Source: Candidatus Hydrothermarchaeota archaeon (lineage in GTDB: Archaea; CAYFZR01). From it: a DNA stretch of 14,676 bases. A program made the translations under genes and the position numbers. A model generated the notes under the pieces. That model did not search any database. It was not told the DNA's origin and saw only the letters and a program-made list of their open reading frames with translations. Shown here one piece after another: positions 1-14,676 of the stretch; position 1 is the first letter of the stretch; each line of letters starts with the position of its first letter. The stretch spans positions 1 through 14,676 of the forward strand of contig JBHIEG010000036.1 of NCBI GenBank assembly GCA_046760505.1, read 5' to 3'.

Positions 1-1
1 T

Positions 2-289
2 ATTAAATACTCATCCGAGCAAAAGGAGATAGATATCAAACTGATTGAGAGGGAAAATCATATTGAAATCAGTGTTAAGGATAAAGGAATTGGTATTCCT
101 CCCGAAGAGCAGGAGAAGATATTTGAGAAATTCTACCGCGTTGCTGACGCTAGTCATTACAGTCCAAAAGGCGTAGGTCTAGGATTAAAAATCATTAAAC
201 ACATTATGTCCGCTCACAAAGGAGAAATCAAAGTTGAAAGTCAACCAAATAGAGGGAGCACTTTTAGTCTGATCTTTCCAAAATCATGA
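2..289 (+). CDS. Sensor histidine kinase, C-terminal HATPase_c domain (5'-truncated by window)
   Basis: Manual translation of frame 2: IKYSSEQKEIDIKLIERENHIEISVKDKGIGIPPEEQEKIFEKFYRVADASHYSPKGVGLGLKIIKHIMSAHKGEIKVESQPNRGSTFSLIFPKS*. It has the G1 (DKGIGI), F (IFEKFYR) and G2 (GVGLGL) boxes. The stop TGA 287-289 overlaps the ATG of the response regulator (ATGA). Confidence 0.93.
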   Translation: MKYSSEQKEIDIKLIERENHIEISVKDKGIGIPPEEQEKIFEKFYRVADASHYSPKGVGLGLKIIKHIMSAHKGEIKVESQPNRGSTFSLIFPKS

Positions 290-969
290 AAAAAATATTA
301 CTAATCGAAGATGATGAGGGTTTGGTAAAAACGTTAACAACTGCTCTCGAAGCAGAAAACTATGAAGTAACCTCTGCTACTGATGGAGAAGAGGGATTCC
401 GCCTGGCATGTAAGGAAAAGGTTGATTTAATTATTCTCGATTTAGTTCTCCCTTCCTTAAATGGATTTGAACTATGCAGAAACCTGCGCACAAAGGGAAT
501 TAAGACTCCGCTAATCATGCTTACAGGAAAGAGAAAAGAGGAGATTGATAAAGTTTTAGGGCTAGAGCTTGGAGCAGACGATTACATCACCAAGCCTTTT
601 GGAACAAGAGAACTCATGGCCAGAATAAGAGTTATTTTTCGGCGCACAATACCAGAAGATGTCGATATAGAAGAATATTCCTTCGCAGATGTTTATGTAA
701 ATTTCAAAAAGCAGACCGCCTCAAAAGGAAAGAAAGAGCTCTACCTCACTGCCAAAGAATTCGATCTTCTCAAGATCCTCGTTGCGAATGAAGGAGGAGT
801 AGTGAGTAGGGATACGATTCTGGATAAAGTATGGGGGTATGATAAATTTCCTACAACCAGGACAGTGGACACGTTCATCCGTAATTTAAGAAAGAAGATC
901 GAAAATGATCCATCCAATCCTGTCCACCTCATAACTGTACCCTGGTCAGGCTACAAATTTCAGAAGTAA
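286..969 (+). CDS. OmpR/PhoB-family two-component response regulator (receiver + winged helix)
   Basis: Receiver motifs KILLIEDD, DLIILDLVLP, IMLT and GADDYITKPF; C-terminal wHTH LTAKEFDLL...SRDTILDKVWG...RTVDTFIRNLRKKIE...TVPWSGYKF; translationally coupled to the kinase. Confidence 0.96.
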   Translation: MKKILLIEDDEGLVKTLTTALEAENYEVTSATDGEEGFRLACKEKVDLIILDLVLPSLNGFELCRNLRTKGIKTPLIMLTGKRKEEIDKVLGLELGADDYITKPFGTRELMARIRVIFRRTIPEDVDIEEYSFADVYVNFKKQTASKGKKELYLTAKEFDLLKILVANEGGVVSRDTILDKVWGYDKFPTTRTVDTFIRNLRKKIENDPSNPVHLITVPWSGYKFQK

Positions 970-1127
970 TAATATGTATATAAGCCTCGAAAAAAACTCT
1001 TCATCCAATTAAACCTATCCAAATTAACGAAGTCCGAATGATTTACGGCGCTTTTTGAGTCCTCTTCCGCTACCTTTTACCCAGCTTGACATCCCATCAT
1101 GTTATGATTTATCACCCCGGGCAAGGA

Positions 1128-1192
1128 TTAACAAAACTTTGACAAACTCTTAACATCTTTTTAACAACTTTTGCCACTGAGGAGGCTACTGT
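1128..1192 (+). promoter_or_regulatory. Pho-box-like array of OmpR/PhoB-family direct repeats with a candidate -10
   Basis: TTAACA 1128-1133, TTGACA 1139-1144, TTAACA 1150-1155 and TTAACA 1161-1166 start exactly 11 bp apart; a degenerate TTGCCA follows at 1171-1176, then 10 bp, then the -10-like TACTGT at 1187-1192. Confidence 0.72.
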
Positions 1193-1225
1193 AAATGGAG
1201 AACAAAGAACCAACATTGAGGCCAA

Positions 1226-2227
1226 ATGAAGAAAGCCGAGAACAGCACCAAGGTGCTCGTTACCGGAGCAGGGGGATTTATCGGCAGCCATCTGACTGAA
1301 GCGCTCATCGAGAAAGGATATGAGGTTGTTGGCCTATTGGAACCCGAGGACCACAATCCCTGGATAAAAAATATCAACGCTCAGTTCATCAGGGGTGATG
1401 TTACAATAAAAAACTCACTCTACAAAGCAGTAAAGGGTGTCTCTTGCATCTATCATCTGGCAGCCTACAAGACTGGTCCCAGTATCGATAGATACTACAT
1501 CACCAATTACCTGGGCACCAGAAACATGGTGAATGTATGTCTCGAATCAGGAGCAAAGATTAAACGCTTTCTGTTCACATCCTCGATCGCAGCTATTGGG
1601 CCCGGAGAGAAAGGGAAGCTGCTGGACGAAAGCACTCCATGTAAGCCAATTAGCGCTTACGGCAGGAGTAAACTGTTTGCTGAGCAGTTCCTAACTTCAG
1701 TAGGGAAGAAATTGCCTGTCACTATTGTCCGTCTTCCTATAGTCTACGGGCCCAGGTTTTCAGGTTTCCTCCTCCCTATCTTCAAACTCCTGAATAGAGG
1801 ATTCCGGGTTTCTTCCGGACACCCAGCAGCCAATCTTGTCTTTGTGAAGGATATTGCTGAAGGAATCATAATGACTGCAGAAAGTCCCGAGGCGGCCGGA
1901 AAGGTTTACCACTTAGGCGGAGAGAAAAATTATTCAATGGACGAAGTACTTACTTGTATTGAACAGTCTCTGGGGAGGAAAACAATAAAACTGAGACTTC
2001 CCTATTTATTCTGCCTTTTAGTCGCTTGTTTTTCTGAATACCTGTCCAGGGTAAAAATAACAGAACTAATGATACGGAGGCAGAATATAGAAGAATATCT
2101 CAAATACAGCGGTTGGGGAATTGATATCTCTAAAGCAGAGCGAGAGCTGGGCTATAAAGCCCAAACCAGGCTTGAGGAAGGGATGAGGGTAACGCTGGGC
2201 TGGTACAGGAAAGAGGGGCTTATTTGA
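1226..2227 (+). CDS. NAD-dependent epimerase/dehydratase (extended SDR; dihydroflavonol reductase/3-beta-HSD-like)
   Basis: Rossmann motif VLVTGAGGFIG, IYHLAA, FLFTSS, catalytic YGRSK (YxxxK), IVRLPIVYGP and C-terminal KAERELGY. Confidence 0.92.
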   Translation: MKKAENSTKVLVTGAGGFIGSHLTEALIEKGYEVVGLLEPEDHNPWIKNINAQFIRGDVTIKNSLYKAVKGVSCIYHLAAYKTGPSIDRYYITNYLGTRNMVNVCLESGAKIKRFLFTSSIAAIGPGEKGKLLDESTPCKPISAYGRSKLFAEQFLTSVGKKLPVTIVRLPIVYGPRFSGFLLPIFKLLNRGFRVSSGHPAANLVFVKDIAEGIIMTAESPEAAGKVYHLGGEKNYSMDEVLTCIEQSLGRKTIKLRLPYLFCLLVACFSEYLSRVKITELMIRRQNIEEYLKYSGWGIDISKAERELGYKAQTRLEEGMRVTLGWYRKEGLI

Positions 2228-2307
2228 CCGCGATAAAAATTTTACTCAAAGACTGTGCATATGAGAGGGATTCTTGGATTCTTCGTCATTTTTGGGGGTG
2301 ATAGAGA

Positions 2308-3657
2308 ATGAAATCATTCACTCTAGAGCTTATCATGCCCACCCAGAAATATCGCAGATATCCGAGGGGGCTCAGGATGCCCGAGCTGACCCTTCCTGTT
2401 CTGGCTGCTCTTACTCCACCGGGCATCGAGGTCATAATCACAGAAGAAGAGATCGAGGAAGTGACCTTCAAGAGTGGCGTGGACCTGGTGGGATTGAGCT
2501 TTATGACCCCCATGGCTCCCAGGGCCTATGAGATTGCTGATGAATACCGCAGCCGGAGGGTGAAGGTCGTGATGGGGGGCATTCATGCTTCAGCCCTCCC
2601 TGAAGAGGCAGCCCGGCACGCTGATGCCGTCGTCATCGGAGAAGCGGAAAATATATGGAATACCCTGCTAGAAGACTTTGCATCGAACAGGCTCAGAAAG
2701 TATTACAGGTCAGCTGACTTTGCAGACCTGAGCCGGATGCCGCATCCGAGGCGGGAACTTCTTAAAAAGAGTATGACCTTCTCTCCCTATCCTATTCAGA
2801 CCGCTCGCGGCTGCCCGTTCGCATGTGATTTCTGCAGTGTAACAAAGTTTTTCGGAAAAACCTTCCGTTACAGGCCTGTGAAAGAGGTCGTTAGAGAGAT
2901 AGAAAGCACTGAGAAAAAAAATTGGGTCTTCGTCGATGACAACATCATAGGAAACCAAAAGTACGCAAAAAATCTGTTTCGCGAGCTTATTCCCTTGAAC
3001 ATACGCTGGGCAGGCCAGAGCTCAGTCCTCATCGGAAGAAACGATGAACTGCTGAGGCTTGCTGCAGAGAGCGGTTGTACCGGGCTCCTCATAGGGTTCG
3101 AATCCATCTCTTATCAAAACCTTCAGAGTGTCCACAAAAGTTTTAGTAAAGTGGAATACTACGAAGACTGCATCAAGAAACTGCACGACCACGGAATTCT
3201 CGTTCAGGCGTCTTTTATTTTTGGGCTCGACTACGACGACAAAGCTGTCTTTGAGGAGACAGTCGACTTTTTGAGAAAAAGCAAAGTGGCTGCTGTCAGC
3301 TTTTCAGTGCTCACTCCGTTTCCGGGCACACAACTCTTTGAAAAGCTGAGCAGAGAGGGAAGAATTCTTGACTACGACTGGTCAAAGTATGATTTTTCAT
3401 CCGTTGTCTACAGGCCAAAACGTATGACACCAGAAGAGCTCTGGGAAGGAATAAGGAAAGCCAGAAAAGAAATTTACAGCTACAAATCTATCCTCTCCCG
3501 GTTCACAGCGAACCGGTTTCACCCCCTTCTCTATTCAGTTGTGAATCTCAGCTACCATGCAAGGAACAGGAAAATGGCTAGATGCAAAGATAACATGAAC
3601 CGCATATTGAGCTCCAAGTGCAACATAATGGATGACAAAAAAAGAAGGCGAAGATGA
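2308..3657 (+). CDS. B12 (cobalamin)-binding domain radical SAM protein
   Basis: N-terminal B12-binding-type fold (DLVGLS, VVMGGIHAS, AVVIGEAE); radical SAM motif QTARGCPFACDFC (CxxxCxxC), FVDDN, IGFES, FIFGLDYD and LTPFPGT. Confidence 0.92.
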   Translation: MKSFTLELIMPTQKYRRYPRGLRMPELTLPVLAALTPPGIEVIITEEEIEEVTFKSGVDLVGLSFMTPMAPRAYEIADEYRSRRVKVVMGGIHASALPEEAARHADAVVIGEAENIWNTLLEDFASNRLRKYYRSADFADLSRMPHPRRELLKKSMTFSPYPIQTARGCPFACDFCSVTKFFGKTFRYRPVKEVVREIESTEKKNWVFVDDNIIGNQKYAKNLFRELIPLNIRWAGQSSVLIGRNDELLRLAAESGCTGLLIGFESISYQNLQSVHKSFSKVEYYEDCIKKLHDHGILVQASFIFGLDYDDKAVFEETVDFLRKSKVAAVSFSVLTPFPGTQLFEKLSREGRILDYDWSKYDFSSVVYRPKRMTPEELWEGIRKARKEIYSYKSILSRFTANRFHPLLYSVVNLSYHARNRKMARCKDNMNRILSSKCNIMDDKKRRRR

Positions 3658-4979
3658 AAATAACACTCATCTATCCTTCACTGAGTAAGTCCAGCCCATT
3701 AATGCGAAAATGGAAGCAGCCAAAAAGTCACCGCTACCCCGGCCTTGGACTGCTCTATGTGGCCGCGCTCTGCCCACAATCGACAGATATCCGGCTGGTG
3801 GATGATGAGTTCGAAAAGATTCCTTATGATGAGGAAACGGATCTGGTCGGAATCACCGTGCTCACAGCAAACTCAAACCGAGCCTACGAGATATCGAATC
3901 ACTACCGTCAAAAAGGAATCCCTGTGGTGCTGGGTGGAATGCATGTCACTTCCTGCCAGGAAGAAGCCTCGAATTACGCAGATTCAGTAGTTGTTGGCGA
4001 AGCTGAAGACACCTGGCCAAAGCTCCTCAAAGATTTCAATGCTGGCAAGCTGAGACCGATGTATACATCCTCGAATGATGCTGACCTGGCTAATAAACCC
4101 TTTCCAAGAAGGGATCTCGTCAATAAAACAGAATACACGACGATCAACACAGTGCAGGCAACAAGAGGATGTCCTTTTAACTGCGAATTTTGCTCTATAA
4201 CAGCCCTGTTAGGCCGGAGAACGAGATGCAGACCTGTGGAGGAAGTGGTAGAAGAAATCAAATCCCTTGAGGGCACTGAGTTTCTTCTCAACGACGACAA
4301 TCTCGCCCAGAAAATTGACTACTACAAAGAGCTTTTCCGCAGACTCATACCGCTGAAAAAAATGTGGGTGGGCGAGGCATCGTGGAACATTGTGAAAGAT
4401 GAAGAGACACTGGAGCTTCTTAGGGAGAGCGGATGCAGAGGACTGGCAATTGGGTTTGAATCGCTGGAGCCTCAGGACGGTGTGAGCAAAATCATGCCCT
4501 CAAAAAACATATTTCTTCTCTACAAGGAAGTGGTAAGGAAATTACATGAGCATAATCTTATAGTCTACGCAAATTTTCTTTTCGGGTTTGACAACGAAAA
4601 TGTAACAACGTTTGAAAAAACACTCGAATTCGCATTAGAGAGCAAAATTGATGCTGCCCAATTCGGTATTATAAAGCCGTTTCCAGGAACTCCCTTCTAC
4701 AAGCGACTCATAAAAGAAGGAAGGCTCACCGAGAAAAAGTGGTACAACTACACCGGGTGGAATGTCTGCTACAAGCTGAAAAACATGCCAGAGAGAACTT
4801 TCCTTCAAAAATTCTCCTGGATTACAAACGAATTCTTTACCTATCCGAGGATACTATCCCGGGTGATCCGGGCATCGAAGAGGACAGGCCTCTATGGACT
4901 GGGACTTCTCTTTGCCATCAATAGAGGACAAAGAAAATACATAAAGAATTTCTCCCGACAGGTGAAGAGTTCCCTCTAG
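3654..4979 (+). CDS. B12 (cobalamin)-binding domain radical SAM protein (paralog of the upstream gene)
   Basis: DLVGIT, VVLGGMHVT, VVVGEAE, QATRGCPFNCEFC, LNDDN, IGFES, FLFGFD and IKPFPGT; 4-bp ATGA overlap with the upstream paralog. Confidence 0.92.
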   Translation: MKITLIYPSLSKSSPLMRKWKQPKSHRYPGLGLLYVAALCPQSTDIRLVDDEFEKIPYDEETDLVGITVLTANSNRAYEISNHYRQKGIPVVLGGMHVTSCQEEASNYADSVVVGEAEDTWPKLLKDFNAGKLRPMYTSSNDADLANKPFPRRDLVNKTEYTTINTVQATRGCPFNCEFCSITALLGRRTRCRPVEEVVEEIKSLEGTEFLLNDDNLAQKIDYYKELFRRLIPLKKMWVGEASWNIVKDEETLELLRESGCRGLAIGFESLEPQDGVSKIMPSKNIFLLYKEVVRKLHEHNLIVYANFLFGFDNENVTTFEKTLEFALESKIDAAQFGIIKPFPGTPFYKRLIKEGRLTEKKWYNYTGWNVCYKLKNMPERTFLQKFSWITNEFFTYPRILSRVIRASKRTGLYGLGLLFAINRGQRKYIKNFSRQVKSSL

Positions 4980-5047
4980 CCCGAGATTAATTTCAAGAGC
5001 AAATATCGACAGAAGAATTGATGCGGCTATTTACTTACGTGGAATAT

Positions 5048-5452
5048 TTATTCCCTTAGAAAGGCATAGAACCACTCATGAAGAGAGGTTTTATCTGAGG
5101 CATCGATTCCGTATAGGAGAATGCCACTTTCTAAAGCTTCTTTCGCCACTCCCCAGTTCTCCTTGAGAGACGAATGAAATTCTTCAATCGTATAAGGAAA
5201 GACATCCACGGATAGGCCGAGTTTTTCTGGCAGGAACCGGGGTATGCGGTCGTCAAACCTCTCCTTTGAATCCTTCAAGAGAATGACAATATCTACATCG
5301 CTTGCAGGCGTAGCTTCCTTCTTAGCCAGAGACCCGAAAAGGATTATCCCCACTACATCTCTATTTCGAGATAAGCTCTCTGCCCAGGATTTCAATTTAA
5401 TGATGAGCTCTTCGTTATCTAACTTAAAGACCTTGACGGACACAGAACGCAA
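5048..5452 (-). CDS. Minimal nucleotidyltransferase (MNT; putative antitoxin)
   Basis: IILFGSLAKKEATPASDVDIVIL matches the GS-x10-DxD signature, and a third carboxylate lies in SVDVFPYT; 134 aa; overlaps the HEPN gene 3' end by 29 bp. The exact start codon is uncertain. Confidence 0.88.
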   Translation of the reverse strand: MRSVSVKVFKLDNEELIIKLKSWAESLSRNRDVVGIILFGSLAKKEATPASDVDIVILLKDSKERFDDRIPRFLPEKLGLSVDVFPYTIEEFHSSLKENWGVAKEALESGILLYGIDASDKTSLHEWFYAFLRE

Positions 5453-5810
5453 TCACCTCCTCGCAGACTCTTATCGCCTCATCGGCTTCCTCTTTTGTGT
5501 AGTATTTGTATGCTGGTCCTGAGGGATGGGCATTAGGGTATCGGGTAGGAATATAGTATTTATCCAGCTTTTTTGCCTTTTCGATGAGACTGGCTTCAGG
5601 TTTTGTGTCTTCAGACAAGTTCTCCAGTAATTCATATACGGAGTGCCCCCAGGCAATGCAGTTTTTCTTCATATACAATGCCTTTACTGCTTTCTCTGCT
5701 GACTGTTGGGCAGCAAAGCATGCCCAGGCATAATCCCCACTCCCAAGGCTGTTCCGGGCATGTCTTAAATCGGCTTTTGCCTGTTCAAACCAATCTTTGG
5801 ATCTGTTCAT
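5424..5810 (-). CDS. HEPN domain protein (putative toxin)
   Basis: W..QAKADL..A, YAWACFAAQQSAEKAVKA, WGHSV and LDKYYIPTRYPNAH (R-x4-H) are typical of standalone HEPN proteins; SD GGAAGAGGAG on the minus strand at 5826-5817. Confidence 0.92.
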   Translation of the reverse strand: MNRSKDWFEQAKADLRHARNSLGSGDYAWACFAAQQSAEKAVKALYMKKNCIAWGHSVYELLENLSEDTKPEASLIEKAKKLDKYYIPTRYPNAHPSGPAYKYYTKEEADEAIRVCEEVIAFCVRQGL

Positions 5811-5940
5811 AACCTGCTCCTCTTCCTTTTTGAAAATCCCTCATCTGCATTTGAAAACAGAAGAAAATCGCCTTGTCATCTCTTATCTATCTGATTTCAT
5901 CTCGCCTGTCAACCCGGGCCGCTTCTGGAAAAGTCCACCA

Positions 5941-6074
5941 TTTTTACTTTGGCTAGCGCATCTATCTGAGAATAGGGAAGACTCCTCAATTTTTCCCAGG
6001 GAAGACTCCTTTCTAGTTTGGCTGGCGCATCTATCTGAAAATAAGTAAGATAGCTTAATTTTTCCCTGGAAAAG
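5941..6074. repeat. Degenerate 69-bp tandem duplication in the HEPN/cas6 intergenic region
   Basis: 5941-6000 vs 6010-6069 match at 49 of 60 positions by manual ungapped alignment (shared core tttggct(a/g)gcgcatctatctga...aatttttccc). There is also an exact 13-mer agggaagactcct at 5974-5986 and 5998-6010. Confidence 0.85.
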
Positions 6075-6113
6075 AGCTCTTAAATAGGCCTTTTTCACCC
6101 CAAAAAGCACCAT

Positions 6114-6155
6114 CTAAGAAAAAATCTCATTCTTCTTAGTATGGGATTTTTCTAG
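6114..6155. repeat. Imperfect inverted repeat (possible operator or RNA hairpin)
   Basis: ctaagaaaaaatctcat (6114-6130) vs atgggatttttctag (6141-6155, reverse complement ctagaaaaatcccat), 10-nt spacer. Confidence 0.5.
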
Positions 6156-6209
6156 TAATGGAATCTCTTCTTCAGCTTTATTAAAATTTCGAGTTTTTGA
6201 TATTATTCC

Positions 6210-6238
6210 TTGCAAAAAAATTACAGTTATTATAATTT
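6210..6238 (+). promoter_or_regulatory. Candidate sigma70 promoter of the cas operon
   Basis: TTGCAA 6210-6215 followed by TATAAT 6231-6236 (15-bp spacer) or TAATTT 6233-6238 (17-bp spacer) in an AT-rich tract upstream of cas6. Confidence 0.5.
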
Positions 6239-6269
6239 TATCCAAGCAAAAGGAAAACATAAAAATCGG

Positions 6270-7232
6270 ATGCTAAGAAATTTTCGTTTCCAGAAGTTTC
6301 GCTTTTTCTTAAGACCATTAGAGGATATAGAGCTTTCTTCTTTTAAAGGCGCAACACTGAGGGGAGGGTTTGGTAGTGCTTTCAGAAGGATTGTTTGCCT
6401 CAAAAGAGACCTTCCTGGATGTCAAGCGTGTCCGCTGAAAAAAGTCTGTGTCTATTCGTTCATCTTTGAAACCTCCCCTTCTGAAAACTCAACCAAATTA
6501 AGAAAAATGAAAGATATCCCTCGTCCATTTATCATAGAACCGCCCCTGGATGGAAGAAATATTTTTTCGGGTGAAGATTATCTTAGTTTTAATCTCATTC
6601 TCATCGGTCGAGCCATTGATTATCTCCCTTATTTTATATTTACTTTTGAAGAACTCGGTAAGAGGGGATTAGGAAAAGGAAGAGGCAAGTATGAGTTCGA
6701 TCGAGTGGAGGTTTCGCGGCCTGAATCGCAGGACAAGGCTGAGATAATTTATTCTGGAAAGGATAAAATAATTTGTGACTCCTTCGAGCCAATAAAAATT
6801 GAAAAAATACTTACTCAATCGAGCTCAATCAACTCCAATATTATTAGTCTTAAATTTCTCACACCAACCAGAATAAAATTTAACAATAAACTGCTTGGTT
6901 CTCCTGAATTTCATCATCTCATAAGAGCGCTTCTCCATAGAATTTCAGCGCTTTCTTACTTCCATTGTGGACAAGAACTTGAAGTTGATTTTAAAAGGAT
7001 AATTGAGAAAGCTGGAGAGGTAGAAAAGGTATCTTCTGAATTAACATGGTCAGAGTTTGAAAGATACTCCACCAGACAAAAAACAAGGATGAAGATGGGG
7101 GGATTTATAGGAAAAGTAACCTATCGAGGAGATGTTTCTGAATTTTTACCCTTTCTACTCCTGGGCGAACAGATTCACATCGGCAAATCCTGCACCTTCG
7201 GTTTTGGAAAATACATTGTCAATGCCGACTAA
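6270..7232 (+). CDS. cas6: CRISPR pre-crRNA processing endoribonuclease Cas6
   Basis: FKGATLRGGFG, Cys cluster C..GCQACPLKKVCVY, PRPFIIEPP, LKFLTPTRIK, ERYSTRQ..M.MGGFIG and C-terminal G-loop HIGKSCTFGFGKY. ATG 6270 is preferred over the ORF-track TTG 6210, which falls inside the candidate promoter. Confidence 0.93.
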   Translation: MLRNFRFQKFRFFLRPLEDIELSSFKGATLRGGFGSAFRRIVCLKRDLPGCQACPLKKVCVYSFIFETSPSENSTKLRKMKDIPRPFIIEPPLDGRNIFSGEDYLSFNLILIGRAIDYLPYFIFTFEELGKRGLGKGRGKYEFDRVEVSRPESQDKAEIIYSGKDKIICDSFEPIKIEKILTQSSSINSNIISLKFLTPTRIKFNNKLLGSPEFHHLIRALLHRISALSYFHCGQELEVDFKRIIEKAGEVEKVSSELTWSEFERYSTRQKTRMKMGGFIGKVTYRGDVSEFLPFLLLGEQIHIGKSCTFGFGKYIVNAD

Positions 7233-7319
7233 TTTTAGTTTTTGCAAAAAATTTTTATTTACTCTAGAAATATTTTGTATTAGTATTTAGCCACAAAAAA
7301 TGAGAGCATAAGCGGGGGA

Positions 7320-9695
7320 GTGATGAATCACGAAAAAGAAGCCTACATATTGGGCGCCTTACTTCATGATATCGGCAAATTTGTCCAGAGAGCACAGAGA
7401 AATCCAAAAAGCAGAGACCATTGTAAATGGGGAGAAGAATGGTTTCAGGATAATCTTGCAGAAAAATTAACATCCGTCTTCACTGATGACGAGAAAGATA
7501 TAATAAGAAAATCGATTAATGTTCATCATGATTATTTTCCTTTCATCCAGTCAGCCGATGGCATTTCAGCATCTATGGATAGGATTTTGATTAAAAATGA
7601 AGAAGAGGGAGACCCCTTCACAGACCGACTGATTTCCATATTTTCGCGTATTTCAATTTCTAGGAAAGGGAAAGGAGAGCTTCACTATCATAATCTGGCT
7701 GAATTAGAAAAAGAAAATCTAGAAATGACATTTCCCATAAAAGAGAAAAAATGCAATTTCAATGAATATTCTGTTTTACTGGAAAAATTTAACAGCGAGA
7801 TAAAGAATTTAGATTTCAAAGAATTGACGCCAAAGCAAATTATCGAACAAATATATTTCATTCTATGGAAATACACTTGGTGCATTCCAAGTGCAGCGTA
7901 TAAGCATGAGCCAGACATTCCTCTTTTTGACCACTTAAAAATCTCGGCTGCAATTACAGCGTGCCTTTTTGATTATGATCAAAGATCGAAAAAGTCGGCA
8001 CCTGAAAAAAATAGAGAAGATGAAGAAGCTTTTGTTTATATAGCTGGAGATATTTCGGGAATTCAAAGCTTTATACTTGGAATTCTAACTCAACAGGGCA
8101 GAATTGCTAAGCGTCTCCGTGCTCGTTCCCTTCTTATTCAACTTTTATCAGAAATAGCCTCCCATCAGATATTGCATAAATTTGATCTACCTCTATGTAA
8201 CATAATTTCTTCAGCTGGAGGCAATTTTTATATTCTTGCTCCTAATATCCCCGAGGCAGAAAATCTGCTAAATGAACTACAGGAGTCCTTTGATAGATGG
8301 ATGTATGAAGAATACAGGGGTGAAATTTTCATTAGCCTTGCCTGGAGTAAAGCAAATAGCAATGATTTATCTTTCAACATAGATAACCTTTACGAAAAAA
8401 CTCACAAAAGATTACAGTTCAAGAAATACAGCCCCTTTAGGACAAATCTAATTAGTGATAATTCTTGGTCTACCAGAAAATTTTTGTTTAAAGAGGTAAT
8501 AGAGGGGGATGAGAAGGCGTGCGTGGGATGCCGCAAGCATCCTATTACTAATCAAGAAGAAAAGCTCTGCAAGTACTGCGACCTAGATAACAAAGTCGGT
8601 CAAAAATTAACAAGAGGTAAATATATTACCTATTTTTCTGATGATGCTCGCGCGTTTCCTTTGCTAAATTATTCTTTTGATATTTTGCCCAGCCTGAAAG
8701 AAGAAAAAAACGCCTACATGATCCAGGCACTAAACGACACAAAAAACCCGCAGATAGGATTCAAATTCATAGCAACTCATATTCCTACAGCAGAAGAAGT
8801 GGGGTGTAAAAAGGAGGAACATGAACATAAGCCAGGAACACCAGCACCAGCGTTTTTTGATTGTATTGCTGATGCATCTGAAGGGGATAAGTCATTAGCA
8901 TATGTTAAAGCTGATGTTGACAATATGGGAAAAATAATTAGGTATGGCTTCCACCCCTCCCTGCCAGAGGACAAATATGTCATTAAAGAAGTAAAACCAT
9001 CTGTCTCTCGCCTTTGCTCTTTGAGCAGAATGCTAGAAACATTTTTTGGCGGAGTAATACAGTTAGAGTTAGAAAAGGAGTTTCCTGAAATATACACTGT
9101 GTTTTCTGGAGGAGATGAGTTTTTTCTGCTGGGTCCATGGAATAAAATTATTGATTTTACAGAAAAAATAAGAAAAAAGTTCGATCAATTTACTGGGTTT
9201 AATCCAGACCTCACATTTTCAGCAGGGATTACGATGGCGAAACCTCATGAGCCTATATCTTTTTGTGCTGAATCAGTTAGCGAAGCATTGAATTGCTCAA
9301 AGGCAAGAAAAGATGAAACAGACATTGAATTGAAAAATGCTATTACTGTCTTTAATCAAACCTTGAGTTGGGATGAATTAAAGGATATTGTTTTGCCAGA
9401 AGTAAGGAAAATAAAGGAATGGGTGGATAAAGAACTTGTTTCTCGCCAATTTGCTTATTTACTTTGGCAATGCGCACTTAAGTATGAAATATATAAAAAA
9501 ACATGCAGAACAGATAGTCTGGAATTTGTTCCAATGCTTGCAGGAAGCATAAATCGCAATTTAGACCCAGTAAAGCAAGAAAAAATATTTAACTGGACAA
9601 AAAGTTTGTTGCCATCACAGAAGAAAGTATTTAGCGAGAAATTACAATTTTTAAGAACCATAATGGAGTATGTTCTGGCCTATACGAGGAGGTAA
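7320..9695 (+). CDS. cas10: Type III-A Cas10/Csm1 (HD nuclease + Palm domains)
   Basis: HD motifs LLHDIGK, DH, HHD and ADGISA; PLFDHLK; Palm1 GDISGIQSFI, KRLRARS and GGNFYIL; Zn finger CVGC...CKYC; Palm2 KADVDNMG and VFSGGDEFF; 791 aa. Confidence 0.96.
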   Translation: MMNHEKEAYILGALLHDIGKFVQRAQRNPKSRDHCKWGEEWFQDNLAEKLTSVFTDDEKDIIRKSINVHHDYFPFIQSADGISASMDRILIKNEEEGDPFTDRLISIFSRISISRKGKGELHYHNLAELEKENLEMTFPIKEKKCNFNEYSVLLEKFNSEIKNLDFKELTPKQIIEQIYFILWKYTWCIPSAAYKHEPDIPLFDHLKISAAITACLFDYDQRSKKSAPEKNREDEEAFVYIAGDISGIQSFILGILTQQGRIAKRLRARSLLIQLLSEIASHQILHKFDLPLCNIISSAGGNFYILAPNIPEAENLLNELQESFDRWMYEEYRGEIFISLAWSKANSNDLSFNIDNLYEKTHKRLQFKKYSPFRTNLISDNSWSTRKFLFKEVIEGDEKACVGCRKHPITNQEEKLCKYCDLDNKVGQKLTRGKYITYFSDDARAFPLLNYSFDILPSLKEEKNAYMIQALNDTKNPQIGFKFIATHIPTAEEVGCKKEEHEHKPGTPAPAFFDCIADASEGDKSLAYVKADVDNMGKIIRYGFHPSLPEDKYVIKEVKPSVSRLCSLSRMLETFFGGVIQLELEKEFPEIYTVFSGGDEFFLLGPWNKIIDFTEKIRKKFDQFTGFNPDLTFSAGITMAKPHEPISFCAESVSEALNCSKARKDETDIELKNAITVFNQTLSWDELKDIVLPEVRKIKEWVDKELVSRQFAYLLWQCALKYEIYKKTCRTDSLEFVPMLAGSINRNLDPVKQEKIFNWTKSLLPSQKKVFSEKLQFLRTIMEYVLAYTRR

Positions 9696-9697
9696 AA

Positions 9698-10171
9698 ATG
9701 CTTAAAAAATGTGAAAGATGTGGGAAAGAATTTGACGCTCGTGATCCCACACATAAAATTTGTCAAGGATGCTTTCGAGAGAGGAATAAAGGATATATTC
9801 CAGAAGAATTATTGATTCGCTCTTACTTTAATGATAGAGGCAATTTCATAGAAGATATCTTTATAGATATTCCTGAAAGACTTGCAAATATTTTCCATTA
9901 TGATGGTCTGAAGAATACACAGGCACGATATTTTTATAATAAAATTTTGAGGGCCAAAGAAATAGCGTTGCGTGAAGGATTTGATTCAGCAAGACCTATT
10001 CTTAATGAATGTGTGCCAGAGATTCAAGGGAAGTTAAATCGAAGAATAAGTGGATTCACAGAAAGTTTCGCTAGTTTTTTAAAACATCATTTATCATCTA
10101 TCAAAGACGAGAGAACTTTAGAGGCATTTTATAAACATATAAAAAGTGTCTTGGATTTTCTTCCAAGATAA
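9698..10171 (+). CDS. csm2: Type III-A small subunit Csm2 (Cas11) with N-terminal CxxC-x13-CxxC extension
   Basis: Lies between cas10 and csm3; Csm2-like GLKNTQARYFYNKI and C-terminal LEAFYKHIKSVL helices; SD GAGGAGG overlapping the cas10 end. Confidence 0.8.
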   Translation: MLKKCERCGKEFDARDPTHKICQGCFRERNKGYIPEELLIRSYFNDRGNFIEDIFIDIPERLANIFHYDGLKNTQARYFYNKILRAKEIALREGFDSARPILNECVPEIQGKLNRRISGFTESFASFLKHHLSSIKDERTLEAFYKHIKSVLDFLPR

Positions 10172-10185
10172 AAAAAGGAGGAAAG

Positions 10186-10875
10186 ATGAAGTTATTGAGC
10201 TATGCAAAATTAAGTGGAACTATTAAATTAAAGACAGGCTTACATATTGGGACAGGTGAAGAAGTTGGGAAAGGAGAACCATTGCCAGTTATGAGGTCAT
10301 TAAGAACCGGTCTTCCATATGTTCCGGGCTCATCTCTTAAGGGAAAAATGAGATGTCTTCTTGAGATTTCTTATGGAAAAATTGGAGAAAATAATGGTCC
10401 ATGCGATTGCGGTAGATGTCAAATATGTATTTTATTCGGAAGTGGAAGCACCAAAAAGATATTTGAGCCTACAAGACTTATCTTTCGTGATTCATATCTT
10501 AGCGAAAATTTTGAGAAAGAATTAGAAAAAATCGGATTAGAGGAAAAAACAGGTGTAAGAATCGATAGAAAAACAGGAACAGTTGCCAGAGGCGCTCTGT
10601 TTAATATACAAAGAGTTCCTGAAGGTTTTGAATTTGATTTCGAAATCTCAGCAAGAATATTTGAGAACGATGATAAAGAAGCTGTTAAAAAATGGCTAGC
10701 TATGGGCCTTTATTTTTTAGAACAGGATACATTTGGAGGAAGTGGCACAAGAGGAGCCGGGTACATCGAATTTAAAAATATAAAGTTTGATGACAAAGAA
10801 TTCGAGGAGGATTGGAGAGACAGATGTGCTGAAATAAAGGGGGAACTACTAGATCTAAAGATAAAAAAAGAATGA
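10186..10875 (+). CDS. csm3: Type III-A backbone RAMP Csm3 (Cas7)
   Basis: TGLHIG, LPYVPGSSLKGKMRCLLE, C.C..C.IC.LFG, RLIFRD, EEKTGVRIDR, QRVPEG and G-loop GGSGTRGAG; SD AAGGAGG. Confidence 0.95.
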   Translation: MKLLSYAKLSGTIKLKTGLHIGTGEEVGKGEPLPVMRSLRTGLPYVPGSSLKGKMRCLLEISYGKIGENNGPCDCGRCQICILFGSGSTKKIFEPTRLIFRDSYLSENFEKELEKIGLEEKTGVRIDRKTGTVARGALFNIQRVPEGFEFDFEISARIFENDDKEAVKKWLAMGLYFLEQDTFGGSGTRGAGYIEFKNIKFDDKEFEEDWRDRCAEIKGELLDLKIKKE

Positions 10876-11780
10876 AAAAATTTTATCGATTATTCCTTGT
10901 ATTCAAAACACCTATTCTAACTCCCTTACAGGCTGACACAATCTTCGGACATCTCTGCTGGGTAATAGCTCATAAAGAAGGAGAAAATGGATTAAAAAAA
11001 TTTCTTGATCCATTTAAAAGAAGTAATCCCCCATTCATCATTTCAGATGGATTTCCTCATGAGCTTCTTCCCAAGCCGTTATCTGCTGAATTTTTGTGCC
11101 CGGAAGAAAAAAGGAAAGAAGTAAAGAAAAGGGAATGGATAAATATCGAAGAGTTCAATAAGGTAAGAAAGGCAATGCTATTTGAATTTCCTGCAGACCT
11201 TGAAAGTAGGGATATTCCTCAAAATATTCTTTCGATACACAATACAATAGACCGTATAACAAATACAGTTACTTCAGAAGTTGGTGTCTACAGCTTTCAC
11301 GAAACTGCAATTTCAAAGGTGTGTATCTATTTAAAAATTATTGAGGATGTAAGGTGGCTCGAAAGGATAAGAGAACTTTTCGAAGAACTTTCTAAAATTG
11401 GCTTTGGCAGGAAGAAATCAATTGGAAAGGGCCATTTTTCAATTGAAGACATTGAAATATTTAATGGGTTTTCGGAAATAGAAAATGCTGACGGATTTGT
11501 CACCCTTTCTAATTTCTGCCCTGCGGAAAATGACCCAGTCGATGGGCTTTACAAAACATTTGTTAAATATGGAAAACTTGGTGAGGAATTTACTTTTTGT
11601 GGCAATCCTTTCAAGAGGCCTCTGCTTATGATTAAAACTGGCTCCGTTTTTAAAACCAAGCGAAAACCAGAGGAATTTTATGGACGAATGATAAACGAAC
11701 GCATTTCACCCCAAATAGATAAAGTGGTTCAATATGCCTATGCGTTTCCTGTGCCCCTTAGCTATCCAAAAGAAATTTAA
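10872..11780 (+). CDS. csm4: Type III-A RAMP Csm4 (Cas5)
   Basis: ADTIFGHLCW, IISDGFP, HNTIDR, G-loop GFGRKKSIGKGHF, GFVTLS, KTGSVF and QYAYAF; 4-bp overlap with csm3. Confidence 0.92.
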   Translation: MKKFYRLFLVFKTPILTPLQADTIFGHLCWVIAHKEGENGLKKFLDPFKRSNPPFIISDGFPHELLPKPLSAEFLCPEEKRKEVKKREWINIEEFNKVRKAMLFEFPADLESRDIPQNILSIHNTIDRITNTVTSEVGVYSFHETAISKVCIYLKIIEDVRWLERIRELFEELSKIGFGRKKSIGKGHFSIEDIEIFNGFSEIENADGFVTLSNFCPAENDPVDGLYKTFVKYGKLGEEFTFCGNPFKRPLLMIKTGSVFKTKRKPEEFYGRMINERISPQIDKVVQYAYAFPVPLSYPKEI

Positions 11781-11792
11781 TCCATAAAGATT

Positions 11793-12074
11793 ATGAAGTC
11801 TCAAAGAAATATTTTGATCTCCACTGTTGGGATAAGTCTTCTCTCTAATATCGAAAAACTTCCACAGGATAATCTCCTGAAAATAGAAAAAGTAAGAGGC
11901 AACTGGATCGGTCTTTCCAAGAGATTGCTAGAGGAATCGGCTGAGGATAAAGTGAATAAAATATGGCGAGAAAAGAAGTATATAAAGAAAATATATGATA
12001 ACCCAGACCTTTCTGAAAAAGAAAAATTAAAGATGGTTTTTATAGATTTAAGTGAGACCTATCTCAAGAAATAA
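11793..12074 (+). pseudogene. Short APE2256-family (CARF) CRISPR-associated gene, probably internally deleted
   Basis: N-terminus ILISTVGISLLSN matches the TVG(T/I)SLL.N start of APE2256-family CARF proteins, but the ORF is only 93 aa and has no TGG.K CARF motif. The frame is open from ATG to TAA. Confidence 0.6.
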
Positions 12075-12091
12075 AAAAAGGAGATGCATGG

Positions 12092-13330
12092 ATGCCGAAG
12101 ACGCTGATCATAAGCGTTGGAGGAGCTCCCTCTCCTGTGATCTATTCTATCAATCAACACACGCCTGATTACATTATATTTTTTGCTTCTCTTGAATCGA
12201 AAGAACAGATACCTTACATTCTAAAAAAGATTGCATACACTCCGAAGGGAACCGAGAATATCGTCACGGAATCAGCTGAAAATATCAATGTCTGTTTAAG
12301 TCGTCTTCGCAGGGAACTTCCTCAGAAGTTACATCTCTATAAATCTAAGCTTCAGGAAACTATCGTTGATTATACAGGCGGCACAAAATGCATGTCCGCT
12401 GCTCTTGTTCTCTCGACCGTCGATTTGAGCTCTTCTTTTTCTTATATTGGTGGATTAGAGCGAGATAAGGGAGGCATAGGAATCACAATAAATGGAAAGG
12501 AGAGAGGATTTTATACGAATAATCCCTGGGATGAGCTTGCCATAGAAGCAAAGAAGAGAATCTCCCTTCTCTTCAATAGAGCCCGTTATCAAGCCGCTAA
12601 AGATGTGGTTGATAAAACTCTGGAGAAAGTGGCAAATAGAGAGAAGCCTTTATTTGAAATATTGGGCATCCTTATCCAGGGCTACATTTACTGGGATGGA
12701 TTCAAATATAAAACGGCTTTGAACAAGCTTGGAAGGGGGCAGAGGGATCTTAAAATTTATTGTGCGAACCTTGAAGAGAATCATCCCTGTGTCTGTCTTC
12801 AGAGGGATGTCGAAAGAAATATTCATTTTCTTTATCAAATTAAAAGCAGTAATAATCAGATTCTGGATTTAATAAGCAATGCGAGAAGAAGGGCAGAACT
12901 TGAAAACAGGTATGACGACGCTTTGATACGCCTATACAGGACCCTTGAAAAGAGGGCCCAGATTGAGATCCGCAAATACAAAATCGACCCTTCTGATGTT
13001 GATGCTCATCTCCTGCCTCCTTCAATTAGGGATGAGATAAAGAAAAAATATTTTGACAGAAGAAAAAACAAAATTAAGGCTCCTATGTATGCCTCTTATC
13101 AGATACTTAAAGAGAAAGAAAGGGAGCTTGGAACTCAAGGAATCGGACATAAGTTTTTTGACCATTATCATTTCATTGATAAAATCATTGCCTTAAGGAA
13201 TCAGAGCATATTGATCCATGGAGAGAATCCGATTGACGAATCCAAATATAAAGATGTTTATAAAAGAATCTTACAGTTTTTTGAAATCGAGGAGGATGAT
13301 ATTCCCCTTTTCCCTGTGTTTGAATTGTAA
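12092..13330 (+). CDS. CARF-HEPN ancillary effector (TIGR02710/Csm6-like, putative cOA-activated RNase)
   Basis: CARF motifs LIISVGGAPSP and VDYTGGTKCMSAAL, NNPW, RYDDALIRLYRTLE, and HEPN motif LRNQSILIHG (R-x6-H); SD AAGGAG. Confidence 0.88.
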   Translation: MPKTLIISVGGAPSPVIYSINQHTPDYIIFFASLESKEQIPYILKKIAYTPKGTENIVTESAENINVCLSRLRRELPQKLHLYKSKLQETIVDYTGGTKCMSAALVLSTVDLSSSFSYIGGLERDKGGIGITINGKERGFYTNNPWDELAIEAKKRISLLFNRARYQAAKDVVDKTLEKVANREKPLFEILGILIQGYIYWDGFKYKTALNKLGRGQRDLKIYCANLEENHPCVCLQRDVERNIHFLYQIKSSNNQILDLISNARRRAELENRYDDALIRLYRTLEKRAQIEIRKYKIDPSDVDAHLLPPSIRDEIKKKYFDRRKNKIKAPMYASYQILKEKERELGTQGIGHKFFDHYHFIDKIIALRNQSILIHGENPIDESKYKDVYKRILQFFEIEEDDIPLFPVFEL

Positions 13331-13331
13331 C

Positions 13332-13352
13332 CAGAAGCCGGGCTTGCTTCTG
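13332..13352 (+). other. Short stem-loop between the effector gene and cas1
   Basis: CAGAAGC (13332-13338) pairs with GCTTCTG (13346-13352) around a 7-nt loop; no U-tract immediately follows. Confidence 0.35.
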
Positions 13353-13394
13353 TGCAAGTTCTTTGAAAATTAAGCCAGAACTGGAGGATAGAAA

Positions 13395-14387
13395 ATGGCA
13401 GTTCTCTATTTAATAGAACAGGGTTCTCTTCTGAGGAAAGAATCGAAGAGACTGGTTGTAGAAAAGGAAGGAAAAATTCTTCTTGAAGTTCCAGAATTTA
13501 AGATAGAAAGAGTGATCATAATTGGTAATGTTCAACTTACAACCCAGGCTATGAAATTCCTGCTTCAATCGGGTATTGAAACGGCCTTTATGACAACCCG
13601 GGGAAAATTGATAGGAAAACTCACTCCTGTTGAGACTAAAAATGTGGAGCTGAGAATGTTGCAGTATCAAAAATATCATGATGAAAAATTCAGATTATCA
13701 ATGGCAAAATGCATTGTAGAGGGAAAGATAAAAAACTCAAAGGTGCTACTCCAGAAGTATCAGAGGAATCATCCTGAGGTTAATTTCGGTGCATCCATTA
13801 GAGAATTGAATGAATTACTCTTAGGCCTGTCCCGCAAAGAGAAGGTCTCTTCTGTATTCGGTTTAGAAGGAAGGGCATCAGCAGCATATTTCTCATGCTT
13901 TGGCCGTATGTTCAGAAAAGAACTCCAATTTGAGACGAGAACCAAGCATCCCCCACTTGACCCGGTAAATGCTCTGCTGAGTCTTGGGTATACACTGATA
14001 ACAAACGAGATACTTTCTGTAGTCTCTTCTATAGGTTATGACCCTTATATAGGTTTTCTTCATGGAATAGAATACGGGAGACCTTCTCTAGCGCTTGATC
14101 TGGTTGAAGAATTTCGCGCTCCAATTATTGACCGGCTCACTCTGGAAATCATCAACAAAGGGATTATTACATCGGGAGATTTCGAAAAAAAGGAGAAAGG
14201 ATATTTTCTCAAAGATTCTTCAAGAGAGAGATTTTTCAAGCAGTATGAGAAGAGAATGCAGGAAAGTTTTTTCATTCCTGAAGAAAAAGCTGAAGGAAAT
14301 TACAGAAGAATATTTTTCTACCAGGCGCAGAAATTTGCCAAATCTCTGAGATCGGGTAGCTTATACAGACCTTTTGCAATAAGGTGA
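13395..14387 (+). CDS. cas1: CRISPR-associated endonuclease Cas1
   Basis: LYLIEQGS, GLEGRASAAYF, PPLDPVNALLSLGY, GYDPYIGFLHG and SLALDLVEEFRAPIIDR; SD GGAGG. Confidence 0.98.
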   Translation: MAVLYLIEQGSLLRKESKRLVVEKEGKILLEVPEFKIERVIIIGNVQLTTQAMKFLLQSGIETAFMTTRGKLIGKLTPVETKNVELRMLQYQKYHDEKFRLSMAKCIVEGKIKNSKVLLQKYQRNHPEVNFGASIRELNELLLGLSRKEKVSSVFGLEGRASAAYFSCFGRMFRKELQFETRTKHPPLDPVNALLSLGYTLITNEILSVVSSIGYDPYIGFLHGIEYGRPSLALDLVEEFRAPIIDRLTLEIINKGIITSGDFEKKEKGYFLKDSSRERFFKQYEKRMQESFFIPEEKAEGNYRRIFFYQAQKFAKSLRSGSLYRPFAIR

Positions 14388-14393
14388 AGGTCC

Positions 14394-14676
14394 ATGAAAG
14401 AAGCATATTTCTGGATTGTAAGTTATGATATTAAAGACAACAGAAGGAGAAACCATGTAAGCCGCGAGTTAAAAAATTATGGAACAAGAGTTCAATACAG
14501 CGTATTTGAGTGCTTGATGCCCGATGAAAAAGCTCGGGAATTGACTGAAAAATTGGAAAGCATTATTGAGGACAAAGAGGACAGTGTACGATTCTATAAA
14601 ATATGTGAGAGCTGCCAGAGGAAAATTTCTGTTTATGGACGTGGGAAAGTAACAGAAGATGAAGACGTTTATATAA
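14394..14676 (+). CDS. cas2: CRISPR-associated endonuclease Cas2 (3'-truncated by window)
   Basis: Not in the ORF track. Manual translation: MKEAYFWIVSYDIKDNRRRNHVSRELKNYGTRVQYSVFECLMPDEKARELTEKLESIIEDKEDSVRFYKICESCQRKISVYGRGKVTEDEDVYI..., with the YDI, RVQYSVFE and DSVRFY motifs. The final TAA of the window is out of frame. Confidence 0.96.
   Translation, partial: MKEAYFWIVSYDIKDNRRRNHVSRELKNYGTRVQYSVFECLMPDEKARELTEKLESIIEDKEDSVRFYKICESCQRKISVYGRGKVTEDEDVYI

Follow-up and report, generated by a model that had tools for sequence, protein, structure and literature searches.

In type III CRISPR-Cas systems, cleavage of the target RNA times both the signalling and the DNase activity of Cas10. 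Type III-F has an effector of four proteins with one Cas7, and its Cas10 is not known to have an active cyclase. According to the main text of Makarova et al. (2025; PMC12669027), Cas7 has not kept its catalytic aspartates in types III-G and III-H, in which the HD domain is apparently active, the Palm domains of Cas10 are inactivated and the adaptation modules are absent. The same text describes a variant III-A2, whose reduced III-A-type effector has no Cas11, keeps the Cas7 Asp and includes a cyclase for which activity is predicted. The present work concerns a type III-A module on a stretch of 14,676 nucleotides from a Candidatus Hydrothermarchaeota archaeon (contig JBHIEG010000036.1, positions 1 to 14,676, assembly GCA_046760505.1). 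This stretch, referred to as the window, is the entire contig C36 of a metagenome-assembled genome (G000; 2.17 Mb, 142 contigs).

The module encodes Cas10, Csm2, Csm3 and Csm4 with no Csm5, and a proline stands in its Csm3 where the slicer aspartate is usual. The reading modestly favoured by the sequence comparisons is that of a Csm5-less III-A lineage with an Asp-less Csm3, which would sense RNA and signal, and in which slicing has probably been lost or slowed. That this lineage is under selection and is not decaying is very probable, while the chances that slicing itself has been lost or strongly reduced are about even.

Gene content of the module and the Csm3 slicer loop

The genes of the module follow the order cas6-cas10-csm2-csm3-csm4-93-aa open reading frame (ORF)-CARF/HEPN-cas1-cas2, with the following coordinates, strands and best-supported assignments (HMM, hidden Markov model; related loci are numbered with the prefix L):

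6210-7232, + strand: cas6, 340 aa from a TTG at 6210 (PF10040, 80.5 bits)
7320-9695, + strand: cas10/csm1, 791 aa (TIGR02578, 582 bits)
9698-10171, + strand: csm2 (Cas11), 157 aa, with an N-terminal zinc-ribbon-like extension (PF03750, 19.1 bits; locally built HMM, 164 bits)
10186-10875, + strand: csm3 (Cas7), 229 aa (TIGR02582, 149 bits)
10872-11780, + strand: csm4 (Cas5), 302 aa (TIGR01903, 136 bits)
11793-12074, + strand: 93-aa ORF from pieces of a Cas_APE2256-family CARF gene (alignments to L108:1032-2132 and to an ORF of L004)
12092-13330, + strand: CARF-HEPN effector (TIGR02710 / Csm6-like), 412 aa (TIGR02710, 158 bits; PF09670, 88 bits; PF22205, 39.8 bits)
13395-14387, + strand: cas1 (PF01867, 324 bits)
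14394-14675, + strand: cas2, cut by the contig end (PF09827, 91 bits)

All frames of the module are open, and the junctions between the ORFs of 7320-13330 range from a 4-nt overlap, that of the csm4 start with the csm3 end, to a 17-nt gap. A preliminary description of this DNA had drawn attention to these intact and tightly coupled frames, to a Csm3 without its catalytic Asp, a GGDE motif in Cas10, a zinc-ribbon-like extension on Csm2, the absence of csm5 and an ancillary CARF gene reduced to 93 aa, in the presence of a Cas10 HD domain and a CARF-HEPN effector that looked intact. Each of these features has been found again and located, as detailed here and in the following section.

The assignments of Csm3 (149 bits against a cut-off of 90) and Csm4 (136 bits against 55) are clear. 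In Csm3, the loop G30-E31-P32-L33-P34-V35 (GEPLPV, nt 10273-10290) stands where GxDNPI is usual, the Asp column of the GxDNP motif being taken here as that of the catalytic slicer residue. Pro32 falls on this column in three alignments, namely a phmmer alignment with solved Csm3 structures, a MAFFT alignment of 37 homologs and an hhalign profile-profile alignment of 30 clade sequences with 26 canonical ones. The reference sequences show GTDNPV or IDSPV at this place, and Glu31 of the window sits directly before Pro32. A word-indexed search with the window Csm3 returned 663 proteins, and among the best 120 of these, which were examined, the top 105 form a clade with 53-81% identity to the window protein (nearest listed homolog P0002, 81% identical). 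One member, P0103, is truncated at the N-terminus, leaving 104 evaluable sequences. All of these are without an acidic residue at the catalytic column, which holds Pro in 84, Ala in 11, Ser in eight and an aligner gap in one. The remaining 15 of the best 120 (44-50% identity) read DNPII, with the exception of one ENPV and one NNPI. The clade Csm3 also has a W210-R211 pair, invariant across 30 clade sequences, in a C-terminal extension that is missing from the sister clade. The Asp-less loop, carried by at least 104 protein clusters, therefore appears to be a clade character and not a lesion.

An exhaustive search of 50%-identity representatives yielded 828 proteins at E <= 1e-10. In the 150 best of these together with the window, the column holds Asp in 133 and Glu in six, three sequences are truncated and nine have another residue; these nine comprise the window and three representatives within the clade, as well as five scattered singletons. 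The Asp-less clade thus seems compact in sequence space yet populous, with sporadic Asp loss occurring elsewhere too. A 7-residue "thumb deletion" was also considered for the clade Csm3 and was rejected, as the residues in question form an insertion in the sister clade and are likewise missing from the solved Csm3 chains.

Three clade members with genomic context, L003, L004 and L083, all repeat the arrangement cas10-csm2-csm3-csm4-TIGR02710, with the zinc ribbon on Csm2 and no csm5, and the Cas10 of each carries the HD residues and SGGDDFF. A cas6 gene is found in L003 and L083, cas1-cas2 in L003 and L004, and CRISPR arrays in L004 (17 repeat copies) and L083 (at least four copies), so that all three give the appearance of working systems. 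The preliminary description had regarded close relatives with canonical motifs and csm5 as a sign of decay in this lineage; the three relatives have no csm5, and all 104 evaluable clade sequences are without the Asp. The L083 array is located between csm4 and the CARF-HEPN gene (~11600-12400) and not after cas2. A CRISPR-associated primase-polymerase with TPR repeats (NF040561, 340 and 367 bits, respectively) is encoded directly before cas1 in L003 (13230-14942) and in a further locus, L014 (12892-14805), while the window has no such gene.

Csm5, the Csm2 zinc ribbon and the signalling components

In searches of the whole 2.17-Mb assembly, no TIGR01899 score exceeded the cut-off and PF03787 revealed no RAMP protein other than Csm3, the only protein matched. 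Locally built HMMs likewise revealed no further Csm-type gene in the assembly, the only other cas match above noise being a second cas1 on contig C46, and TIGR01899 is over its cut-off in none of six genomes with Csm5-less loci (that of the window and five more, one of them a single chromosome). Two collection scans around Csm3 relatives have provided at least 160 further loci, most of them with a canonical Csm3 (161 listed with the window); these were scored with locus HMMs built from the window proteins and from two Csm5 seeds passing TIGR01899. Since a locus was scored as Csm5-less only when at least 1200 nt of sequence followed csm4, 125 of the 161 loci are evaluable: csm5 is present in 94, absent in 31 and not judgeable in 36. 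What comes directly after csm4 in the 31 loci without csm5 is a CARF gene (csm6), cas6, cas1 or an array. The recovery of Csm5 in 94 loci with the local HMM indicates that the search is sensitive enough for an ordinary Csm5.

In a FastTree of 110 near-full-length Cas10 rows (26 Csm5-less, 72 Csm5-plus), the csm5 trait needs four changes, as opposed to a mean of 23 when shuffled, and none of 500 shuffles was as low as four. The catalytic column of Csm3 holds Asp in 22, Glu in five and Pro in four of the 31 Csm5-less loci, and Asp in 91, Glu in one and gaps in two of the 94 Csm5-plus loci. Loss of csm5 thus appears to be old and broad, and far older than the loss of the Asp. The Csm5-less group raises the question of how the 3' end of the CRISPR RNA (crRNA) is capped and trimmed without the subunit to which work on model systems has tied the maturation of crRNA. 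Cas6 was considered as a replacement cap and set aside, as the same Cys-rich type (about 315-325 aa) is found in both Csm5-plus and Csm5-less loci. In the window, the N-terminal half of Cas6 holds a Cys cluster, its TIGR01877 score (42 bits) is under the cut-off, and an ATG at 6270 would yield a protein of 320 aa, matching the relatives (314-322 aa).

The match of the window Csm2 to PF03750 is weak (19.1 bits against a cut-off of 24.8), and the assignment is supported by the position in the operon and by 164 bits to the local HMM built from related loci. Its N-terminal extension contains Cys5, Cys8, Cys22 and Cys25 in a CxxC-x13-CxxC arrangement (nt 9710-9772). A zinc-ribbon Csm2 has been found in 14 listed loci, the window included, of which seven are Csm5-less, six could not be scored for csm5 and one (L104) was counted as Csm5-plus; the ribbon is absent from the 86 other Csm5-plus loci. 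L104 contains two adjacent type III modules (133-14376), of which the first has a zinc-ribbon Csm2 and no Csm5 and the other comprises cas10-csm3-csm4-csm5. Among the listed loci, the Csm2 zinc ribbon therefore seems to recur only in Csm5-less modules. In L006, it is encoded as a separate 94-aa ORF. The ribbon does not appear to be tied to Asp loss, since it is also found beside an Asp-bearing Csm3 (L008, L039, L113).

An exchange of subunits is suggested by L014, which falls within the Cas10 clade of the window (support 100). Its Cas10, Csm4 and Cas6 share 62-64%, 59-63% and 56-61% identity, respectively, with those of L083 and L003, and its Csm6 is 62% identical to that of L083 but only 34% to that of L003. 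Its backbone proteins are foreign, with 24-26% (Csm2) and 41-44% (Csm3) identity to the same loci; they are nearest to those of L013, L104 and L107 (Csm3 62-68%, Csm2 40-44%), with the Asp present and no ribbon. As the L014 pair is foreign to its surroundings, csm2-csm3 would seem to move as a unit, with both versions serving the same Cas10/Csm4 chassis.

Cas10 is a clear member of the Csm1 equivalog (TIGR02578, 582 bits; cut-off 170) and can be aligned over its full length with that of PDB 6xn3. Its HD residues are found at positions 16-17 (nt 7365-7370), the palm motifs DISGIQ (palm1) and ADVDNMG at residues 244 and 531, the zinc finger CVGC...CKYC at residues 401-420 and GGDE at residues 597-600 (nt 9108-9119). 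Among the 130 evaluable Cas10 sequences of the listed loci, 127 read GGDD, one is GGNE and one is gapped, the window being the only one with GGDE, and its nearest Cas10 relatives read GGDD. GGDE has been counted among natural, probably active variants (Hoikkala et al., 2024). As a conservative change that appears private to the window and a natural variant already in print, it has been dropped from the list of anomalies. The CARF-HEPN effector (TIGR02710, 158 bits against a cut-off of 83.9) has its HEPN Rx6H motif at residues 369-376 (nt 13196-13219), and its gene is preceded by an AAGGAG Shine-Dalgarno sequence. The window thus encodes the two motif-defined halves of a cyclic oligoadenylate signalling pair, a GGDD-type palm and a CARF effector, and the signalling of the module is likely to be functional.

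The 93-aa ORF has no Pfam match even at E 10, and the CARF core (PF09651 profile positions 1-136) is missing from it. When compared to a 366-aa Cas_APE2256 CARF protein (L108:1032-2132), it aligns with residues 3-86 (E 4e-4) and 297-320 (E 0.004). Its sole match among the ORFs of the retrieved loci is one of 94 aa in the corresponding position of L004. This ORF in turn aligns with residues 297-364 of the L108 protein (E 1e-11, 38% identity), and its opening residues align with the N-terminal end of that protein. As only N- and C-terminal pieces align, the two ORFs are internal-deletion derivatives without the CARF core, in line with the reduced ancillary gene that had been reported. On the Cas10 tree, L004 is the sister of the window (support 91). 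A small-protein search with both ORFs gave, beyond the queries, a single match, a fragment of 71 aa that shares 99% identity with the ORF of the window. Over their last 18 codons, a tiny sample, the two differ by nine synonymous and five non-synonymous codons, with four identical, which hints at continued constraint at the protein level. There is no clear Shine-Dalgarno sequence before this ORF, unlike the CARF-HEPN gene that follows it.

The preliminary description had treated the anomalies as a single package, interpreted as a distinct variant or as a system in early decay, and had called for a Cas10 tree on which the co-occurrence of the traits could be scored. The traits differ in age, and the package does not hold together: csm5 loss is mostly accompanied by an Asp-bearing Csm3 (22 of 31 loci), GGDE is found once in 130 sequences and the ribbon also occurs with Asp-bearing Csm3. 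What stands of that interpretation is the selected variant as opposed to early decay, given that none of the 104 evaluable clade members has an Asp or Glu at the column and that the order without csm5 has been kept in the three other clade loci with context.

Possible mode of action and competing explanations

In the proposed mechanism, Cas6 would cut the repeat to give the crRNA, the 5' tag of which would be held by Cas10 and Csm4, while Csm3 and Csm2 filaments would cover the spacer without a dedicated cap. From the gene content we infer a complex of four proteins, which on binding a complementary transcript would switch on the HD single-stranded DNase and the GGDE cyclase of Cas10, and the cyclic oligoadenylate produced would activate the adjoining CARF-HEPN RNase. 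Without the canonical Asp, the complex has probably ceased to slice the bound transcript or slices it much more slowly, which would prolong the active state. Target release, RNA turnover and signal breakdown would then be needed for shut-off, giving a longer response resembling abortive infection. If so, the module would be a natural "timer-less" type III system, which could reveal how signalling is ended by other means or that it is deliberately not ended, and it would offer a ready-made, high-gain RNA sensor of four proteins.

Several observations weigh against this reading, and the most serious of them concern the loop itself. The residue preceding the catalytic column is acidic in 100 of the 104 evaluable clade members (Glu in 96, three of these assigned by eye at aligner gaps, and Asp in four), which makes a relocated catalytic acid possible. 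A Glu stands at the column itself in eight of the 161 listed loci, which indicates that acidic variants are tolerated there; it is found in five of the 31 Csm5-less loci (L092, L095, L100, L113 and L162) as compared to one of the 94 Csm5-plus loci, and also in L090 and L119, in neither of which csm5 can be judged. Outside the loop, Csm3 shows high conservation, 48 columns being invariant in an alignment of 30 clade sequences. The complex could accordingly be an ordinary Csm minus Csm5 that still slices, with Glu31 replacing the Asp in a shortened, proline-rich loop. However, it is Pro, rather than Glu, that occupies the Asp column in the three alignments, no gap separates this Pro from the anchoring Gly, and four clade members carry Ala (three) or Gln (one) at the preceding position. 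In canonical Csm3 this position is mostly uncharged and often hydrophobic, which suggests that the loop has been rebuilt and not merely shifted. A complex that still slices is thus considered rather unlikely, though a serious alternative to a slicing-deficient sensor. The remaining reservations concern the sample, as clade loci with context comprise, among the loci listed, only the window, L003, L004, L083 and the 1.3-kb L084 (of the last four, two come from genome contigs and two, L084 among them, from metagenome contigs), and the Cas10 phylogeny is that of FastTree alone, with several long branches.

The own array of the window is unassembled, and in an assembly of 142 contigs csm5 may lie on an unassembled piece. 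This last point bears on a further explanation, in which Csm5 has been missed, either because it lies on an unassembled or unbinned piece or because another protein, too far diverged to be recognised by the models used, stands in for it. The window does end at a contig break, and a 646-aa protein without annotation is encoded beside the second cas1 on contig C46. Nonetheless, the absence of TIGR01899 matches extends to all six genomes, including the single chromosome, the 31 loci scored as Csm5-less continue from csm4 directly into csm6, cas6, cas1 or an array, and the local HMM recovered Csm5 in the 94 others, making an overlooked Csm5 very unlikely. Early decay, in which the losses of csm5 and the Asp, GGDE and the CARF stub would be steps toward a dead locus, could draw on that stub, on the missing array beside the module, on a broken type I-B remnant in the same genome (a 155-aa Cas8b fragment) and on a genome of the same genus without the locus. 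This genome (G006, the only one of the genus searched) has no match to the window Csm3, and the locus is therefore likely to vary within the genus. Against decay, all core frames are intact, as are the HD, palm and HEPN motifs, the Asp-less loop and the Csm5-less order have been kept across clade members at 50-80% identity, relatives have retained arrays and adaptation genes, and even the stub shows nine synonymous against five non-synonymous differences from its L004 counterpart in the last 18 codons. Decay is accordingly regarded as highly improbable, and a selected lineage that would sense RNA and signal with reduced or lost slicing continues to be favoured.

Other features of the genome and relation to known systems

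The part of the window upstream of cas6 contains the following features:

2-969, + strand: end of a histidine kinase and a response regulator
1226-2227, + strand: NAD-dependent epimerase
2308-4979, + strand: two B12-binding radical-SAM paralogs in tandem (449 and 441 aa)
5048-5810, - strand: HEPN (PF05168, 124 bits) / nucleotidyltransferase (PF01909) pair

The radical-SAM pair adjoins the epimerase gene, and the HEPN/nucleotidyltransferase pair, of a kind often read as toxin-antitoxin, lies directly upstream of cas6. No CRISPR array was detected by TRF in the window, nor at the contig ends; the array expected after cas2 presumably causes the contig break there. A two-repeat mini-array is found on contig C15 of the same assembly (~46398-46510), with a Cas4-like gene (L164 5034-5645, - strand) about 0.5 kb away. 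It has not been assigned to the module as its cognate array and is kept apart from it, since its repeat differs from those of the clade relatives. A second, broken CRISPR locus is present on contig C46 (L163 5346-9865), starting with the 155-aa fragment, which matches only the first 94 positions of Cas8b/TM1802, and continuing with Cas4, a PIN protein, the 646-aa protein, which has no match in Pfam or NCBIfam, and cas1, cut by the contig end. Outside the genus, all other candidate relatives of the host share only the domain with it, indicating an isolated lineage.

Regarding the literature, the main text of PMC12669027 makes no mention of Csm5 and singles out neither a Csm5-less III-A group nor this Asp-less lineage, and on natural absence of Csm5 the searches yielded only two experimental papers on Staphylococcus; supplements may list such loci. 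A prior description of a Csm5-less and Asp-less III-A system was not found in the literature searched, and such loci may have been listed earlier. On a broader and more tentative view, which we hold to be possible rather than probable, the loci would represent a sizeable, unrecognised four-protein branch of type III-A (Cas10, an often zinc-ribbon-bearing Cas11, one Cas7 and Cas5, with no Csm5). Within it, one clade would be permanently without the slicer Asp while keeping HD, cyclase, CARF-HEPN and adaptation, and csm2-csm3 would be swappable between slicing and non-slicing versions.

When compared to type III-F, the window shares the composition of four proteins with a single Cas7, whereas its Cas10 is a Csm1 equivalog with cyclase motifs. 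Canonical III-A complexes (6ifn, 6xn3, 7uzw) resemble the window in having a full-length Cas10 with HD, palm and zinc finger, in Csm3 chains that match the window Csm3 at E 1e-26 to 1e-24, and in the presence of Csm4 and a CARF-HEPN protein; the window differs from them in having no Csm5, Pro for the slicer Asp, a zinc ribbon on Csm2 and GGDE for GGDD. The best solved match is the Csm3 of PDB 4qts (E 4.7e-40, residues 8-204), which shares a Cys-rich insert (CxC..CxxC) and reads GTDNPV where the window reads GEPLPV. With types III-G and III-H, as set out in the main text cited above, the window has the missing Cas7 Asp and an apparently active HD domain in common, but it possesses intact palm motifs, an adjacent CARF-HEPN gene and cas1-cas2. 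The III-A2 of the same text resembles the window in being a reduced III-A-type effector with a putatively active cyclase; relative to it, the window keeps Cas11 in the form of Csm2 and has neither Csm5 nor the Asp.

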